64,000 nt of DNA from a bacterium (GTDB lineage Bacteria > Bdellovibrionota_B > Oligoflexia > Oligoflexales > RGVZ01). The DNA lies in NCBI GenBank assembly GCA_043757325.1, contig JAYVPO010000110.1, positions 2,386-66,385 on the forward strand. Direction: 5' to 3'. The translations under genes were made by a program, and so were the position numbers. Below the pieces are notes generated by a model. It saw only the letters and a program-made list of their open reading frames with translations. It did no database searches and was not told the DNA's origin. This document shows, piece after piece, positions 11,084-49,049 of this stretch (position 1 is the stretch's first letter; each line of letters opens with the position of its first letter).

Positions 11084-12013
11084 TTGGATTCTTTAGGCAT
11101 TTCAATAGTCATACCAATTTATAATGAAGTTAAAGCCGTTGCGGAGCTGAAGGAATTGCTCGAAGCCACTTCCGAAAAATTAAATATTCTTCATGAGTTT
11201 ATCATTGTCGATGATGGGTCCAATGATGGCACACCACAAATACTAAGCGAGCTCTCTAAGTATTTTAGTAATCATAGAATTTTGGTGCGATTTATTGCCC
11301 ATGCGGAGAACACAGGATACGGAGCTGCTTTAAAAACGGGGATTACTGCGGCGCAGTTTCCTTGGATTGCTATTACCGACTGCGACGGAACCTATCCAAC
11401 TCCTCGAGTTGCGGAATTTTTAGAGATTGCGCAGTCGCAAAATTTCGATATGGTGGTTGGTTCTAGGCATACAAAAGATGCAAATATTCCATTAATTCGG
11501 CGCCCTGCCAAGGCGTTCTTAAATTTGGTTGCAAATTTTTCGACAGGTCGTATTATTCCTGATCTAAATTCCGGCTTTCGAATCTTTACGAAGGAATTGG
11601 CTCTGCGTTTTTATCATCTGTACCCCGACGGTTTCTCTTTTACTTCGACAATTACTCTGGCGTCGTTGCATTCTGGCTTAAGAGTACTTTATGTCCCAAT
11701 TGTATATCTAAAGCGCGCGGGAGTTTCCAAAATAAGGCCTATTCGGGATACTTTAGGTTTTCTCCAACTGACTGTGCGGATTACGGTTTATTTTAATCCT
11801 CTACGGTTTTTTTTACCGGTTTCCGTGTTCATTTTTTTTGTCGCGGCGATTGTTATGGCAATGGATCTTCGCGAGGGTAAGCTTAATGATTCCACAACGA
11901 TTATAGTAGTTTGTGGACTTATTATATTTTCTTTTGCTTTGATTTCTGACCAGCTTAATACCCTCCGAAAAGAACTCCAGGATGTCCGGGTTCGTGAGAA
12001 CCGTAAAAAGTGA
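11084..12013 (+). CDS. family-2 glycosyltransferase, polyprenyl-phosphate sugar synthase type (ArnC/GtrB/DPM1-like)
   Basis: TTG start 8 nt after GGAG. SIVIPIYNE, VDDGSNDGT and TDCDGTYP motifs are present. Two C-terminal TM helices (FFLPVSVFIFFVAAIVMAM, IVVCGLIIFSFALI) are typical of the ArnC/GtrB class. Confidence 0.75.
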   Translation: MDSLGISIVIPIYNEVKAVAELKELLEATSEKLNILHEFIIVDDGSNDGTPQILSELSKYFSNHRILVRFIAHAENTGYGAALKTGITAAQFPWIAITDCDGTYPTPRVAEFLEIAQSQNFDMVVGSRHTKDANIPLIRRPAKAFLNLVANFSTGRIIPDLNSGFRIFTKELALRFYHLYPDGFSFTSTITLASLHSGLRVLYVPIVYLKRAGVSKIRPIRDTLGFLQLTVRITVYFNPLRFFLPVSVFIFFVAAIVMAMDLREGKLNDSTTIIVVCGLIIFSFALISDQLNTLRKELQDVRVRENRKK

Positions 12014-12082
12014 TTTATACCTACCTTCATTGAGGCGCCCAACATTAGCTGGATCACACCTCAATAACCTCCTGTTCATATT

Positions 12083-12499
12083 GGATGCAATTTTCTGCGA
12101 CTCAAGCGGGTTCATGTTTTCCAGACATGTTACCTTTACGTATATTCTTGACCTGGACATCGGCCTTTTTTATTGCCCTTTGGGTGATCCTGAATTTCGC
12201 CGGAAGGCATAGCCCGGAAAGCATAGCCCGGAAGGCATTGCCCGAAAAACATTGCCCGAGAAACATATCCAACCGGGCTACCGAAAGCGTAACCCAAAAG
12301 ACTTGCAGTACAAATATCAAACGGGAGTTTCAATATGCTAAAACAACGCTTGAAAAAGTAGATGGCAAACGCCTCTAGGCGACAATCAGGTTCACCTCAA
12401 AGGCGAGGGCGACAAAAAAGCCAATGTCGAAGACAAGGATGGACGTCTATGAGTCAAGGCCAGCAAATATAAAACCCCGCGCCGCGAAAGATTTCATCC
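12083..12499. repeat. long imperfect palindrome, element A (structured RNA or MITE-like element)
   Basis: 12156-12201 pairs with 12378-12428, and 12083-12099 pairs with 12483-12499. It is homologous to element B at 23754-24100. Confidence 0.65.
12202..12270. repeat. tandem 14-nt repeat array (about 4.9 units) at the apex of element A
   Basis: Units: ggaaggcatagccc / ggaaagcatagccc / ggaaggcattgccc / gaaaaacattgccc / gagaaacatatcc. The period is not a multiple of 3. Confidence 0.8.
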
Positions 12500-12607
12500 G
12501 GTGTGAACCCGAAGTTATTAAGAAGTTACAAATCGGATCACATATCACTTTGACATTGTGCAAAAATGCCAGTAGTTTGGCCGGGTCTTTGAAACTAGTA
12601 ATTTTTT

Positions 12608-21797: not shown

Positions 21798-23000
21798 ATG
21801 CGCGATCCCCAAAATCCAACTGTAATTTTTTACGCAGGCAGAACTGCAATCGGAAAACTTTCCGGAGGGCTTGGGACAATTCCCGCCCCTCGGCTTATGG
21901 CGACATTAATTGCCGATGCTTTGCAGAAGACCAAAGTAAATCCAGCCGCGGTAGACGAAGTCATTTTTGGGCAGGTTTTAACCGCAGGTGTCGGCCAAGC
22001 ACCAGCGCGCCAGGCCGCTATTTTCAGTGGTTTGCCAGATTCTGTCCGCGCCACAACTATCAACAGGGTCTGTGGAAGCGGCTTAAAAGCGGTCATGCTG
22101 GCTGATCAAGCTGTTCAGTTACAAGATGCAAAAATCATTTTTGCAGGCGGCCAAGAAAACATGACTTTAGCACCACATTTACTGATGAATTCACGCGCGG
22201 GATTTAAATTTGGCAATGTGGAAATGAAAGATCATTTGCAGTGGGATGGACTCTGGGATCCTTATAGTCAAATTGCAATGGGTCAATGCGGTGAAATTTG
22301 CGCCGCAAAATACGACTTTTCACGGGAAATGCAGGATCAGTTTGCACAAGAAAGTTACCTGCGAGCGCGAGCAGCAAGCGACTCAGGGCAATTTGCTAAA
22401 GAAATCGTCCCGATTAAAATTGCCGGAAAAAAAGGTGATATTTTCATCGACAAAGATGAAGAACCATTTGCTTCTGATTTAGCAAAATTAAAAGATCTGC
22501 GCCCGGCGTTTGAGAAAGCGGGGACGATAACTGCAGGAAATGCTTCCAGCATTAATGATGGTGCCGCGCTACTTGGAATCACCGACTTAAAAACAGCACG
22601 GGAGAATGGCCTGCATCCTTTGGCAAAAATCGTAGCCTCCGCATCCCATGCTCAGGCACCCAATTGGTTTACAACCGCGCCGGTTTCGTGCATCGAAAAA
22701 GTTTTGCAAAAAGCAAATCTAAAATCCAGCGATATCGATTTATTCGAAATTAACGAAGCCTTTAGTGTTGTTCCTATGGCAGCAATGAGAGAATTAAAAC
22801 TCAATCCTGAAAAGATAAATATCTACGGCGGAGCGGTAGCTTTAGGCCACCCTATAGGTGCCAGCGGGGCGCGTGTTCTTGTAACTTTATTAAATGGACT
22901 TAAAAGTACTGGAAAATCCCGCGGACTTGCAACATTATGTATCGGCGGTGGCGAAGCTTCCGCTGTTATCGTGGAATTACTAGTCGCTGGCGCGAAATGA
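21798..23000 (+). CDS. acetyl-CoA C-acetyltransferase (thiolase II)
   Basis: 400 aa with NRVCGSGLKAV (active-site Cys), ..NEAFS.. and ..GLATLCIGGGEASA... The last ~20 nt, including the stop, lie inside repeat element C. Confidence 0.9.
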   Translation: MRDPQNPTVIFYAGRTAIGKLSGGLGTIPAPRLMATLIADALQKTKVNPAAVDEVIFGQVLTAGVGQAPARQAAIFSGLPDSVRATTINRVCGSGLKAVMLADQAVQLQDAKIIFAGGQENMTLAPHLLMNSRAGFKFGNVEMKDHLQWDGLWDPYSQIAMGQCGEICAAKYDFSREMQDQFAQESYLRARAASDSGQFAKEIVPIKIAGKKGDIFIDKDEEPFASDLAKLKDLRPAFEKAGTITAGNASSINDGAALLGITDLKTARENGLHPLAKIVASASHAQAPNWFTTAPVSCIEKVLQKANLKSSDIDLFEINEAFSVVPMAAMRELKLNPEKINIYGGAVALGHPIGASGARVLVTLLNGLKSTGKSRGLATLCIGGGEASAVIVELLVAGAK

Positions 23001-23155
23001 TAAAAATGACTGCGTTGACTTCAAAAAACCCTCCTCGCCGTGCGCATAGCTGCGCATAGCATTGTCTTCGTTGGTTTTTTTTCGCCGCCTTGTCCTTTTC
23101 TCATTTGGCACCAGCTTAGTTTGTTAGTTACGAGCCCAATACATAATTATAAGGA
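22981..23155. repeat. ~175-bp imperfect palindrome, element C (ERIC/MITE-like), copy 1 of 2
   Basis: Aligns along its whole length with 29057-29228 (first ~100 nt nearly identical by eye). Contains the tandem tgcgcatagc x2. Confidence 0.8.
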
Positions 23156-23161
23156 AATAAA

Positions 23162-23701
23162 ATGAATAAGCAAAACTGCAAATCTGAAGTAACTGAAGCT
23201 CAAAAATCTATCGATTTTGAGAAAAACAAATATCAAATTAAATTCGAGACTTCGATGGGCGACATACTTTTAGATTTGTATGCCGATAAAGCTCCATTGC
23301 ATGCAAAAAACATCATTGGATTGTCGAAGGTTGGTTATTACGATGGCTTAACTTTTCATCGGGTGATTCCAAATTTTGTGATTCAAGGCGGTTGTTCTGT
23401 TGGAAATGGAACTGGGGATGCTGGCTATAAAATCAAAGCCGAATTTAATTCTGAAAAACATGAGCCAGGTGTTCTATCCATGGCTCGGGCACAAGATCCA
23501 AATTCTGCGGGCACTCAGTTTTTTCTGTGCACGGGAAAATCACCTTTTTTAGACAATCAGTACACGGTTTTTGGAAAAACCGCAGACGAAGAAAGCTTGG
23601 CCACTGTTATGCGCATTGCAAAAGTGCCGACGAGCGCAGGCGATAAACCCAAAGAGCCGGTCACAATTGAAAAAGCGCTTGTGATTGAAACAGGTCTTTA
23701 A
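23162..23701 (+). CDS. ppiB: peptidyl-prolyl cis-trans isomerase, cyclophilin type
   Basis: 179 aa with FHRVIPNFVIQGG, ..SMARAQDPNSAGTQFF.. and ..TVFGK... Confidence 0.9.
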   Translation: MNKQNCKSEVTEAQKSIDFEKNKYQIKFETSMGDILLDLYADKAPLHAKNIIGLSKVGYYDGLTFHRVIPNFVIQGGCSVGNGTGDAGYKIKAEFNSEKHEPGVLSMARAQDPNSAGTQFFLCTGKSPFLDNQYTVFGKTADEESLATVMRIAKVPTSAGDKPKEPVTIEKALVIETGL

Positions 23702-23753
23702 TATTTAGCAAGATTCACAATTTGTATATATGGTATCCCAATTGCGTTAGCTT

Positions 23754-24100
23754 AACATTGGGTTCAACTTTTTGCGCGCGGCATAATGTTTTGTAGAATT
23801 GCGGCCTTTACGTCTATATTTGCCTTCGGCCTTTTCCTTACCTTTAGGATGATCGTGATCGTCTACGGAAGGCATTGCCCGAAAGACTTTGCCAGACAGC
23901 TTCCATGAACTAAGCCAGAAAAACTCGCCATGTAAATATCAAAGTCTTTATGTTGTTAAAACAACGCATGAATACGCGAAGGGCAATGTCTGTCGTCGAC
24001 GATCAAGATCACCCGAAGGCCGATGTGGAAGTCAAAATCAGACGTAGAAGTGCCAAGACTTAGGATGAATTAACCCGCGCAGAAAATTGATGCCAATGTT
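23754..24100. repeat. long imperfect palindrome, element B (diverged homologue of element A)
   Basis: 23754-23781 pairs with 24075-24100. 23847-23880 pairs with 23981-24014 (28 Watson-Crick, 2 G-U and 4 mismatches over 34 positions, hand count). 23882-23890 pairs with 23941-23949. Confidence 0.7.
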
Positions 24101-24219
24101 GACCTGAGGTTATTCAAAAGCGGCTAATATGTGCTGTAACGTTCTGAAAATTTTGAATTTAAATTAAAAATCACGAAAGGCTAAGTTACCCGCCGATAAG
24201 GCAAACGAGGAGGACTTCT

Positions 24220-25038
24220 ATGTCTTATTCTTTGTTAGCTATGGTTTTATTGTCGGCCCTTAACAGTTCCTTTTTAGAGGCAAAAGCTACAACCGTCACC
24301 ACGTATGTAACTACCGTTCAAGAGGAACGCGAGTCAACGCGTTGGACATTGACGAAGTGGCTAGAAATCAAAGAACGCATGAAATTGATGGATGTGTGGC
24401 TTGCGATGTTTTCCGATCCACAAAAGGATAGGTTTGCGCCTGAATTAATGCTGAGCTTCGGAAGAATGCGTGGAGATTTCTCGTACTTGGCAGACTCCAA
24501 TTCCGAAAAACTTACTAAAACCGATAGTCAGGCAGGACAGGCGCAACTTTGGCTTACGAATATTGTTTCAAGCACCATCGGAATTCGGAGTCTTAATATT
24601 GATTTTGGTGGAGAAGGATTCGCCAAAGAAACGAATACTGCGTTGTCAAGTGACGTTGAATTAAATGAAAAAACTTCTAATTTGCAGCATTACACCGGCA
24701 ATCTGCGTATATTCGGTAAACATGTGCAGGATTCTTCGCTGGTTTTAAAGTATGGCGGTTATAAATTTAAATCTCCTGTGCTAAACATTGAGCAAAAAGG
24801 CGAAGCTGTCGGCGCCGAGTTGCAACTATATCTTATAAAATGGTTAGGGGCTGAAGGTCATTTCATGCAGTACGGTAAAAAATCTGGTACTTACTACGAT
24901 TATCAGGCGTATATTGAAATTTCTATTTTGCGATTTTCGGTTGGTCCTTATTCGGAAGACTGGACAACAACTCGTGACAACATTGACCTAAAGACCACAG
25001 AGCGCGGTTTAATGGGTAGCCTAAAAGTTAGTTTGTAA
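24220..25038 (+). CDS. hypothetical secreted protein, possible small outer-membrane beta-barrel
   Basis: Strong SD (GAGGAGG) before the ATG. The signal peptide is MSYSLLAMVLLSALNSSFLEAKA. The rest has alternating beta-type sequence. Confidence 0.5.
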   Translation: MSYSLLAMVLLSALNSSFLEAKATTVTTYVTTVQEERESTRWTLTKWLEIKERMKLMDVWLAMFSDPQKDRFAPELMLSFGRMRGDFSYLADSNSEKLTKTDSQAGQAQLWLTNIVSSTIGIRSLNIDFGGEGFAKETNTALSSDVELNEKTSNLQHYTGNLRIFGKHVQDSSLVLKYGGYKFKSPVLNIEQKGEAVGAELQLYLIKWLGAEGHFMQYGKKSGTYYDYQAYIEISILRFSVGPYSEDWTTTRDNIDLKTTERGLMGSLKVSL

Positions 25039-29056: not shown

Positions 29057-29228
29057 TAGTCGCTGGCGCGAAAGGATAAAAATGACTGCGTTGACTTCAA
29101 AAAACCCTCCTCGCCGTGCGAATAGCTGCGCATAGCACTGTCTTCGTTGGGTTTTTCTCGTCGCCTTGTCCTTTTTCCATTTGGCGCCATCTCAGTTAGT
29201 TAGTTACGCGCCAACTACAAAATAAGGA
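29057..29228. repeat. ~175-bp imperfect palindrome, element D, copy 2 of 2
   Basis: Homologous to 22981-23155. Internal pairing includes 29064-29070 with 29207-29213 and 29100-29107 with 29149-29156. Confidence 0.8.
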
Positions 29229-36404: not shown

Positions 36405-36465
36405 TGCCCACGACTTTACTGGAAATTTGCTCGATTGCGAACAACAAAGCGAACATTAAAAGGAA

Positions 36466-36560
<95 letters not shown>

Positions 36561-47492: not shown

Positions 47493-49049
47493 TTATTCGA
47501 CTTTTTCTACAATAATTTGCGTCAGACCATCAATATTTTGGATTCGGCCTTTAATTTGAGCGCGACCTTTCTTTTTTCTAAAGGCGTCGGCGTACGCAAC
47601 TTTGAAAAACACCGCCATCATTTCTTCACCTTTCGCTGACAAAACGGGAAGTCGGCATTTTGCATTACAGCGTTCAATGGCCGCCGGATTGTAAGTGAAA
47701 AGCGACGCTGACGAAATCAAGGGCTGAGGCGAAACTTTTGGCTCTAATTTGGTCGTTGGATTTGTCGATGACTTGGCAGATGTTATTGTCTTGGCAGACA
47801 CCCTGCTTTGATCTGCTGATTTTCCGACCACGCCAGTCTCAGCCGCTGTCTTGGCAGACACCCTGCTTTGATCTGCTGATTTTCCGACCACGCCAGTCTC
47901 AGCCGCAGCAATTTTTGTTATGGAAGGTTTCATCAATATTGGTGATTTGGAGTTCAGATTAGCTTTTGCGACAGGAAAGTTTTTGGTTTTGGGAGGATCG
48001 ATTTGTTTAGGTTTTTGTCGCAACCTATTGATATTTCGAGGTTTGCTTTTTAAATTCTTCCTGGGTGTCTGCTGAGAATCCCTGGGTGTCTGCTGAGAAT
48101 CGATCGCGGAGCGCAATTTCTGAGTGTCTGGTAACAATTTTTCTGGTGACAATTTTGATGACAATTCTTTCTGGGTGTCTGATGGCAGTTTGGGATTTGA
48201 TGGCTGGGTGTCTGCCGTTAAAGGACTCTGCGGCGGACTTGCAGACACCCTATCAATCTGCGGAGTTTGGACAGTTGAAGTTACGGGTTTTGGCTGTGGA
48301 GATTTTTTCCCGTGAGATAGCAGGATATAAAACCCAAACCCCAATAAAATCGTGATTAGAACTAAAATTATTTCCAGCGGAAGATTAGATAGTGAATTCT
48401 GAGAATGAGGACTTGCAAACTCCAAAGGCTGTAGCGCTTGAATAAATTTATCCATTTTAACAGACAAACCATCGGCGATAAGTTCCACGCGAGCATTTTT
48501 TGCCACCAAACCTCGGTTCCATAAATCTAGAATGGACGCGCTATCAACGGGACCAAGAAATTTTGTTTTCGAAATTCGAACAATGTATTTTTTAGCCGAA
48601 GCGGGCCTAATTGCCGGACGGGATTGAATTTTTTTTAATAGTGCTGAATGCGCCGCCAAGGCCTGAAATTGCCGAGGACGTTGGATTAAAAGAGGCTTTG
48701 TGATTTTTATTTCATCACCCGCAAGTTGCGCGGGCAGTTCCGGAAGTTTAAACGCCTGAGGAGTGTCTAGTATCATCGTAGACTGATTTGCTTCGACCAA
48801 ATGAGATTGCGCAGCAGAGACTGACGTTCTCTGTTCGGGTTTTTCACTACCAAATTGTTCGGCGCGGGGACGCTCTTCGGCACCAAAAAGTTCATCTGCT
48901 TCGATAATGCGAACTTTGATATTTGAATTTTCCGCTGACACAAAATCAAACGGATCAATACGACCCGATCGCAGGTAGTCTTGAACTTCCTGCGCGGTCA
49001 AAAATCCGATTGGCAGATTCTTATTATGAACAATCCATCTTTTTGCCAC
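47493..49049 (-). CDS. membrane protein with N-terminal GYF_2-like domain and a long S/P/T/Q-rich repeat region
   Basis: 518 aa. The N-terminal WIVHNKNLPIGFLTAQEVQDYLRSGRI resembles DUF4339/GYF_2. There is one TM helix (LEIILVLITILLGFGFYILL). The low-complexity region contains exact tandem repeats. Confidence 0.55.
   Translation of the reverse strand: MAKRWIVHNKNLPIGFLTAQEVQDYLRSGRIDPFDFVSAENSNIKVRIIEADELFGAEERPRAEQFGSEKPEQRTSVSAAQSHLVEANQSTMILDTPQAFKLPELPAQLAGDEIKITKPLLIQRPRQFQALAAHSALLKKIQSRPAIRPASAKKYIVRISKTKFLGPVDSASILDLWNRGLVAKNARVELIADGLSVKMDKFIQALQPLEFASPHSQNSLSNLPLEIILVLITILLGFGFYILLSHGKKSPQPKPVTSTVQTPQIDRVSASPPQSPLTADTQPSNPKLPSDTQKELSSKLSPEKLLPDTQKLRSAIDSQQTPRDSQQTPRKNLKSKPRNINRLRQKPKQIDPPKTKNFPVAKANLNSKSPILMKPSITKIAAAETGVVGKSADQSRVSAKTAAETGVVGKSADQSRVSAKTITSAKSSTNPTTKLEPKVSPQPLISSASLFTYNPAAIERCNAKCRLPVLSAKGEEMMAVFFKVAYADAFRKKKGRAQIKGRIQNIDGLTQIIVEKVE
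47787..47906. repeat. perfect 60-bp tandem duplication inside the GYF-like gene
   Basis: 47787-47846 is identical to 47847-47906. It encodes AAETGVVGKSADQSRVSAKT twice on the minus strand. Confidence 0.9.

Follow-up and report, generated by a model that had tools for sequence, protein, structure and literature searches.

The intergenic sequence between ppiB and the following gene of the same strand folds into a long hairpin, here called element B. The question raised by this locus is what such a palindrome represents: an RNA with helices kept by selection, a site that works at the DNA level, a pair of small genes, or the eroding remains of a mobile repeat. The last of these is preferred, with a probability of about 0.55. 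According to it, B is one of two old copies of a lineage-specific non-coding repeat of ~0.4 kb. The repeat could be described as MITE-like or foldback-like at the same level of confidence; its fit to these types is incomplete, and membership in a MITE family is not claimed. The coordinates (Table 1) refer to the window, i.e., the whole 64-kb stretch of DNA that was analysed.

Table 1. Positions of elements B and A, their parts and the genes adjoining B in the window
Feature	Position	Strand	Description	Basis
Element B, whole palindromic repeat	23740..24115		~376 bp; the initially annotated feature plus 14–15 bp per side	nhmmer arm matches and both-strand fold
B left arm	23740..23880		+ strand pyrimidine-rich; terminus degenerate, AATTGCGTT...	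four-arm alignment
B centre, non-palindromic	23881..23980		1–2 more degenerate 14-nt units; apical helix of 9 bp	
B right arm	23981..24115		+ strand purine-rich; terminus ...GAGGTTATT	four-arm alignment, nhmmer
Element A, other copy	12063..12519		~457 bp	direct repeats, nhmmer, fold
14-nt tandem array CCGGAAGGCATAGC	12200..12267		inner end of A left arm; 3–4 units	Tandem Repeats Finder
Candidate target-site duplication, left (A only)	12051..12058		GGATCACA; weak	8-mer flank match
Candidate target-site duplication, right (A only)	12535..12542		GGATCACA; offset from palindrome ends	
ppiB, cyclophilin-type peptidyl-prolyl isomerase	23162..23701	+	upstream of B	ORF, PF00160
272-aa gene	24220..25038	+	downstream of B; no Pfam family; signal-peptide-like N-terminus	

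The location of B between two co-directional genes of the + strand, as given in the initial annotation, is correct: these are ppiB (PF00160) and the 272-aa gene. The element starts 38 nt past the ppiB stop codon, and the 272-aa gene, which has its own ribosome-binding site (GAGGAGG), starts 105 nt past the end of B. Among the neighbours of the two elements are genes for a thiolase, PpiB, a likely secreted protein, a DUF455 protein and a GT2 glycosyltransferase. Homologues of the 272-aa protein are labelled Oligoflexales, Oligoflexaceae, Oligoflexus and Pseudobacteriovorax (the nearest is 56% identical), and the host is therefore assigned to an uncultured member of Oligoflexales (Bdellovibrionota). 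At least 240 homologues of this protein occur across Oligoflexales and other Bdellovibrionota; their consensus C-terminus is ...GVKLQF, and they possibly form an uncharacterised family of outer-membrane proteins.

The same neighbourhood contains a direct repeat of another kind, 167 nt long and 90% identical between its copies (22981–23147 and 29057–29223). The first copy overlaps the final 20 nt of the thiolase gene and ends ~15 nt before ppiB. The second begins 45 nt past the stop of a SpoIIE-domain gene and ends ~15 nt before a + strand gene for a 433-aa protein without Pfam family. This repeat contains TTGACT... and a 10-nt tandem TGCGCATAGC in two units, folds modestly (z −2.2) and is not matched in Rfam; a promoter or leader common to its two sites is one possibility, a second family of repeats another. 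Elsewhere in the window, a 60-nt unit is present as a perfect tandem duplication (D4, 47787–47906).

Three helices had been paired by hand in B, and all of them are present exactly as claimed. The longest joins 23847–23880 to 23981–24014; of its 34 positions, 28 form Watson-Crick pairs, 2 form G-U pairs and 4 are mismatched. The apical helix (23882–23890 with 23941–23949) is formed by Watson-Crick pairs at 9/9 positions, and the outer one (23754–23781 with 24075–24100) by 21 Watson-Crick pairs and 1 G-U pair. These helices are portions of a single imperfect hairpin, which occupies the whole length of the element (23740–24115) and whose arms are matched by nhmmer at 23740–23880 and 23981–24114. 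Compared with the reverse complement of the right arm, the left one shows 70% identity; Watson-Crick pairs are found at 70% of 129 aligned positions, and G-U pairs raise the proportion to 79% for the + strand and to 73% for the − strand. The description of the helices as strongly maintained is therefore apt for the best 34-nt stretch only. About 30% of the arm positions are unpaired, a point against a functional RNA. Between the arms, the centre carries a small hairpin GTTGTTAAAACAAC at 23952–23965.

B was also regarded from the start as a diverged second copy of another sequence, element A, and this was borne out by repeat families, nhmmer and the overall identity. A is the sole other match to B in the 64-kb window. 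The copies lie 11.7 kb apart. Repeat families connect them in direct (D5, D18) and in cross-complementary orientation (I1, I4), and the arms are matched by nhmmer with E-values between 1e-33 and 1e-41. Overall, the elements are ~66% identical, with 66% for the left arm, 69% for the centre and 63% for the right arm. Both centres are asymmetric and contain the motifs AAATATCAAA and TAAAACAACGCnTGAA in the same orientation, and the elements are likewise oriented alike relative to the + strand genes at their sides. A begins 49 nt beyond the stop codon of a gene for a family-2 glycosyltransferase (11084–12013) and ends ~90 nt before a 460-aa gene. The difference in length between the copies is mostly due to the 14-nt array: up to 5 degenerate units are found in A (12201–12273, repeat family D2), and in B one clear unit, CGGAAGGCATTGCC at 23866–23879, with 1–2 degenerate ones.

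A hairpin of this size could belong to a functional, strand-specific RNA, namely the 3' UTR of ppiB, the 5' UTR of the 24220 gene or an independent transcript, with its helices kept by selection. Such a reading is considered unlikely. The high stability of the fold speaks in its favour: on the + strand, B has a minimum free energy of −133.3 kcal/mol, compared with −92.6 +/− 5.1 for dinucleotide shuffles (z −8.0), and 0/100 shuffles are equal to it. However, the fold of the − strand is about as stable (−130.3 kcal/mol, z −7.4), and for A it is the more stable of the two: −166.7 kcal/mol (z −5.6) against −147.5 (z −4.9) on the + strand. Thus, A favours the − strand by 19 kcal/mol and B slightly favours the + strand. 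The B hairpin is far beyond chance, yet strand-symmetric. Approximately equal folding of the strands, with the better strand not the same in A and B, would be expected of a DNA palindrome and not of a strand-specific RNA.

Searches for known RNA elements point in the same direction. At the Rfam gathering score, no match for A or B was obtained in the whole window, and at E <= 10 only chance-level matches were found in 23650–24250, which counts against a functional RNA. The large structured RNAs of Rfam share with B a length of 370–460 nt, an intergenic position and long-range pairing of the 5' and 3' parts; B differs from them in having no Rfam match, no clear strand specificity, no covariation above the null and no conservation in relatives. 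The expected signals for transcription do not favour an RNA either: the scan of the element region gave no promoter-like site above shuffles, including sigma-70-like ones, and the hairpin is not followed by a T-run (U-tract) on either strand, as would be required for an intrinsic terminator. Only one site in B resembles a terminator, namely a 5-bp stem of the − strand located in the centre, and it is within shuffle expectation. The window's only Rfam match at the gathering score is the bacterial small SRP RNA (RF00169, 68.4 bits) at 36464–36559 on the − strand.

The arms themselves bear on the choice between a maintained structure and a decaying palindrome. The initial annotation had stated that both arms changed together. 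Four arms were aligned: A-left, the reverse complement of A-right, B-left and the reverse complement of B-right. Selection on pairing, or conversion of one arm by the other, would make an arm resemble its partner in the same element more than it resembles the arms of the other element. Within-element identity is 64% for A and 70–71% for B, and between-element identity is 61–70%. The four arms are thus approximately equidistant and form a star (61–71% identity), and sharing an element does not make two arms more alike, contrary to what both the claim and the RNA reading would require.

Site patterns were compared with a null in which a perfect palindrome decays, each of its four arms taking 17–21% substitutions independently. 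The alignment has 118 ungapped columns, 52 of them invariant (46–56 in the simulations, which reproduce the arm identities too). Among the 2:2 patterns, 5 columns are of the within-element, i.e., compensatory, type, 1 is of the arm type and 2 are crossed. The neutral simulation yields 1.8–2.4 compensatory columns (about 2.1), with P(>=5) = 0.04–0.10, or ~0.06. Compensatory columns are therefore nominally in excess (5 vs ~2), which could be put forward for the RNA reading, but the counts are inside the neutral null. Two compensatory positions noted earlier in the GGTGATC...GTCG helix are real, and their number is about that expected by chance.

The joint fold of A and B agrees with this. For the + strand, RNAalifold predicts 75 pairs, of which 11 are doubly changed; for the − strand it predicts 74, of which 7 are. 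The 11 double changes of the + strand could be regarded as support for a maintained RNA; in simulated neutral palindromes, 74–88 pairs with 6–9 double changes are obtained, and P(>=11) is 0.13–0.32 at the divergence that fits the data. The proposal that the helices are kept by compensatory change is not upheld, as the substitutions show no enrichment of compensatory pairs, the very outcome that had been named in advance as speaking against it. No excess of compensatory change over neutral decay is seen. In conservation, the centre (69% identical between A and B) does not stand out from the arms (63–66%), a further point against a functional RNA.

One possible sign of strand specificity is left. 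G-U-type mismatches in B number 12 on the + strand and 4 on the − strand (the latter being of A-C type when read on the + strand), a bias that favours an RNA of the + strand but is missing in A (13 vs 11). It is a weak hint, and strand-biased mutation could be its alternative source. Two other properties would also suit an RNA function: A and B have the same orientation, next to co-directional + strand genes and shortly past a stop codon, and the element has persisted despite its age. On the other side, it is missing from relatives.

An eroding repeat remains the preferred interpretation of these data. It is supported as a neutral relic by the equidistance of the arms, by the uniform divergence and by site patterns and RNAalifold counts that fit the neutral null. 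The indels between arms (5, 7 and 12–18 nt) and the 14-nt microsatellite of variable copy number are usual in unconstrained DNA. At the same time, weak selection acting on an RNA would be compatible with the similar orientation and distance from the stop codon, the G-U bias of B and the nominal compensatory excess. Weak structural selection, if real, would explain the nominal excess, the G-U bias of B, the shared orientation and the persistence. Accordingly, A and B might be lineage-specific long-hairpin RNAs of ~400 nt in 3' UTRs under such selection, or else the first bacterial foldback transposon; either of these stronger versions is thought rather improbable.

Strand-symmetric folding would also be expected of a palindrome retained for a role in DNA. 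A cruciform, a protein-binding site, an origin folded in single-stranded DNA or a recombination site (sso-like or attC-like) could be proposed, and all of them together are given little credence. Besides the symmetry, the repeated GATC-containing words GGTGATCnTGATCGTCG in the reconstructed arms and the 14-nt tandem units at the inner end of the left arm are consistent with such a role. However, A has lost the GATC words, pairing is not preserved, given the independent decay of the arms, no recombinase, Rep or relaxase gene is adjacent, and nothing similar was found in the plasmid or phage collections (blastn of B with a distant setting).

Coding capacity could be suggested by reading the arms outward. 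On the − strand of the B left arm there is an open reading frame MPSVDDHDHPKGKEK... (42 aa), and on the + strand of the right arm another, MSVVDDQDHPKADVEVK...; outward arm readings are MPSVDDHDHPK... and similar. Two divergent small protein genes, one per arm and each starting from an inner ATG, would fit the presence of such frames in both B arms and in the left arm of A and the similarity of the first 11 codons in the four arms, yet this is the least credible of the readings and hardly plausible at all. In a variant of it, a small hydrophobic toxin-like protein would be encoded on the + strand of the left arm. The + strand frames are indeed hydrophobic (97 aa in A, 40 aa in B), and the one in A (12085–12378, +, wholly inside the element) appears as a predicted protein in public collections. 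Against both variants, indels between arms (5, 7 and 12–18 nt) interrupt the frames, the right arm of A has no start codon and contains an in-frame stop, and variation by codon position (3/12, 6/11, 7/11) is unlike that under purifying selection. The ATGs are not preceded by a ribosome-binding site, no Pfam family is matched, and the hydrophobic or basic character results, whichever frame is read, from the pyrimidine/purine skew that the arms have. The 97-aa frame of A was compared with protein collections of 1.84 billion representatives and 5.8 billion clusters, and only itself and one weak match were found. The latter (E 5e-6) is to 10 short stretches of a repetitive 1148-aa protein and was set aside as probably unrelated. 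The readings as small proteins, a type I toxin or divergent genes are discarded on the grounds of the frame breaks and the codon-position pattern, and the 97-aa gene call inside A is almost certainly spurious.

Further copies were sought with nhmmer profiles of the arms and of the full-length element. No third copy is present in the window, none in the closest loci (L003–L005), and no homologue of the element was found in 59 loci of Oligoflexales and Bdellovibrionota (~930 kb). The host genome is represented in public collections by short contigs only, all inside the window, and the number of copies given here covers the 64-kb window. The combined centre motif AAATATCAAA...TAAAACAACGCnTGAA has 0 matches in genome contigs and 0 in viral contigs; its single match in metagenome contigs lies inside a phage gene and is due to chance. 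Four matches of the terminal motif in viral contigs are confined to the seed and are not elements.

In L003–L005, other neighbours stand beside the homologue of the 272-aa gene, and the upstream intergenic region, 100–320 nt long, is without the element; in more distant Oligoflexus genomes, any nearby cyclophilin gene is on the opposite strand. The lack of the element beside the homologous gene in relatives is in line with a lineage-specific repeat. Comparison through the 272-aa homologues (<= 56% identical, with other neighbours) gave no usable empty site. A de novo search for long local palindromes in relatives revealed only an unrelated REP-like cluster in an Oligoflexales MAG (JBFWNG010000004.1, locus L015, 10789–11147). 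It is situated directly downstream of the 272-aa homologue and consists of the unit TTGGGCGTTCGACTGTCCCC, present twice and, ~200 nt on, twice inverted; its sequence is unrelated to A and B.

B is a palindrome present in two copies with equidistant arms; its coding frames are not conserved, compensatory change is not in excess, and it matches none of the known RNA families. Its mobility and the part played by a transposase are inferred. The ancestor would have been a nearly perfect palindrome with two arms of ~140 bp and an asymmetric centre of ~100–150 bp. It would have been copied to at least two intergenic sites, each 38–49 nt past a stop codon, presumably by a transposase acting in trans and recognising the inverted ends AATAACCTC...GAGGTTATT. 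Each arm would then have gained ~19–20% substitutions and small indels independently of its partner, and the present hairpin would be complementarity left over from the origin and not a selected structure.

Read-through from ppiB, if it occurs, would produce an imperfect RNA duplex of ~130 bp, whatever the origin of the element. This duplex could act as a 3' stabiliser or as a target of RNase III, as in other bacterial intergenic repeats, and such an effect would be a by-product.

Two traits typical of MITEs are present in the elements. They are small (< ~500 bp) and non-coding (376 and ~457 bp, no Pfam family, frames unconserved), and they have terminal inverted repeats, AATAACCTC... and ...GAGGTTATT, which remain complementary inward for ~140 nt, the left end of B being degenerate. 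Traces of insertion are fainter. The candidate target-site duplication of A, an 8-bp repeat GGATCACA offset from the palindrome ends, was equalled in 35/2000 flank shuffles (P ~0.02). The flanks of B share a 5-mer only, at chance level, and contain no counterpart of this direct repeat. No partner insertion sequence with matching ends was detected by nhmmer in the window. The mobile interpretation is weakened by these points, i.e., by the presence of only two copies within the window, the lack of a flanking repeat at B and of a partner insertion sequence, and also by the length of the arms, since 140 bp greatly exceeds the usual 20–40 bp of MITE terminal repeats. In addition, bacterial genomes have a deletion bias, and it is somewhat surprising that ~0.4 kb of functionless DNA should have lasted until a divergence of ~35% was reached, which weakens the view of B as a relic.

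Bacterial MITEs are intergenic non-coding elements of up to ~400–435 bp, composed of inverted ends and a core without a transposase gene (PMC3184786). In size and in the predicted stability of their RNA hairpins, A and B match Chunjie of Geobacter uraniireducens (hairpins of −98 to −130 kcal/mol), MaeMITEs of Microcystis, Nezha of cyanobacteria, Correia and ERIC (PMC3184786). MITEs, like A and B, can lie in operons or between co-directional genes. Unlike known MITEs, A and B have complementary arms of ~140 bp, which make up nearly the whole element, instead of terminal repeats of ~20–40 bp. They also differ in being represented by two old copies (~66% identity), without a clean target-site duplication or a partner insertion sequence, and in resembling, at the sequence level, none of the entries in the collections that were searched.

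In eukaryotic foldback (FB) transposons, long inverted arms constitute most of the element, with internal tandem repeats and a short asymmetric middle. FB transposons and other long-inverted-repeat elements have the same architecture as A and B, a likeness of form only, as the former are eukaryotic and their arms reach hundreds to thousands of bp. To our knowledge, there is no established family of the foldback type in bacteria.

REP and BIME sequences share with B an intergenic palindromic nature and a position after genes, and roles in mRNA stabilisation and termination have been proposed for them. REPs are G+C-rich stem-loops of 20–40 bp in hundreds of copies, whereas B is a single palindrome of ~376 bp with approximately genomic G+C content. 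Identity of B with REP/BIME was rejected: it is a long palindrome in two copies and has no sequence in common with the REP-like units of the L015 cluster.

For the study of structured RNAs, the case has a methodological meaning. Two diverged copies of a palindrome will always yield a very negative z-score of folding and some apparently compensatory pairs in RNAalifold. The proper null is independent decay of a palindrome and not a shuffle, and the proper test is whether an arm is closer to its partner than to the arms of another element. When applied to A and B, this four-arm test leaves no case for an RNA structure maintained by selection. The consequence for annotation is minor and concerns the spurious 97-aa gene already called in A.

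As a feature, B is of an ordinary kind, though its lineage has been poorly sampled. If the mobile interpretation is true, a barely sampled bacterial order would possess an unusually long-armed family of palindromic repeats, and in two intergenic regions of this organism read-through transcripts would carry a long duplex.
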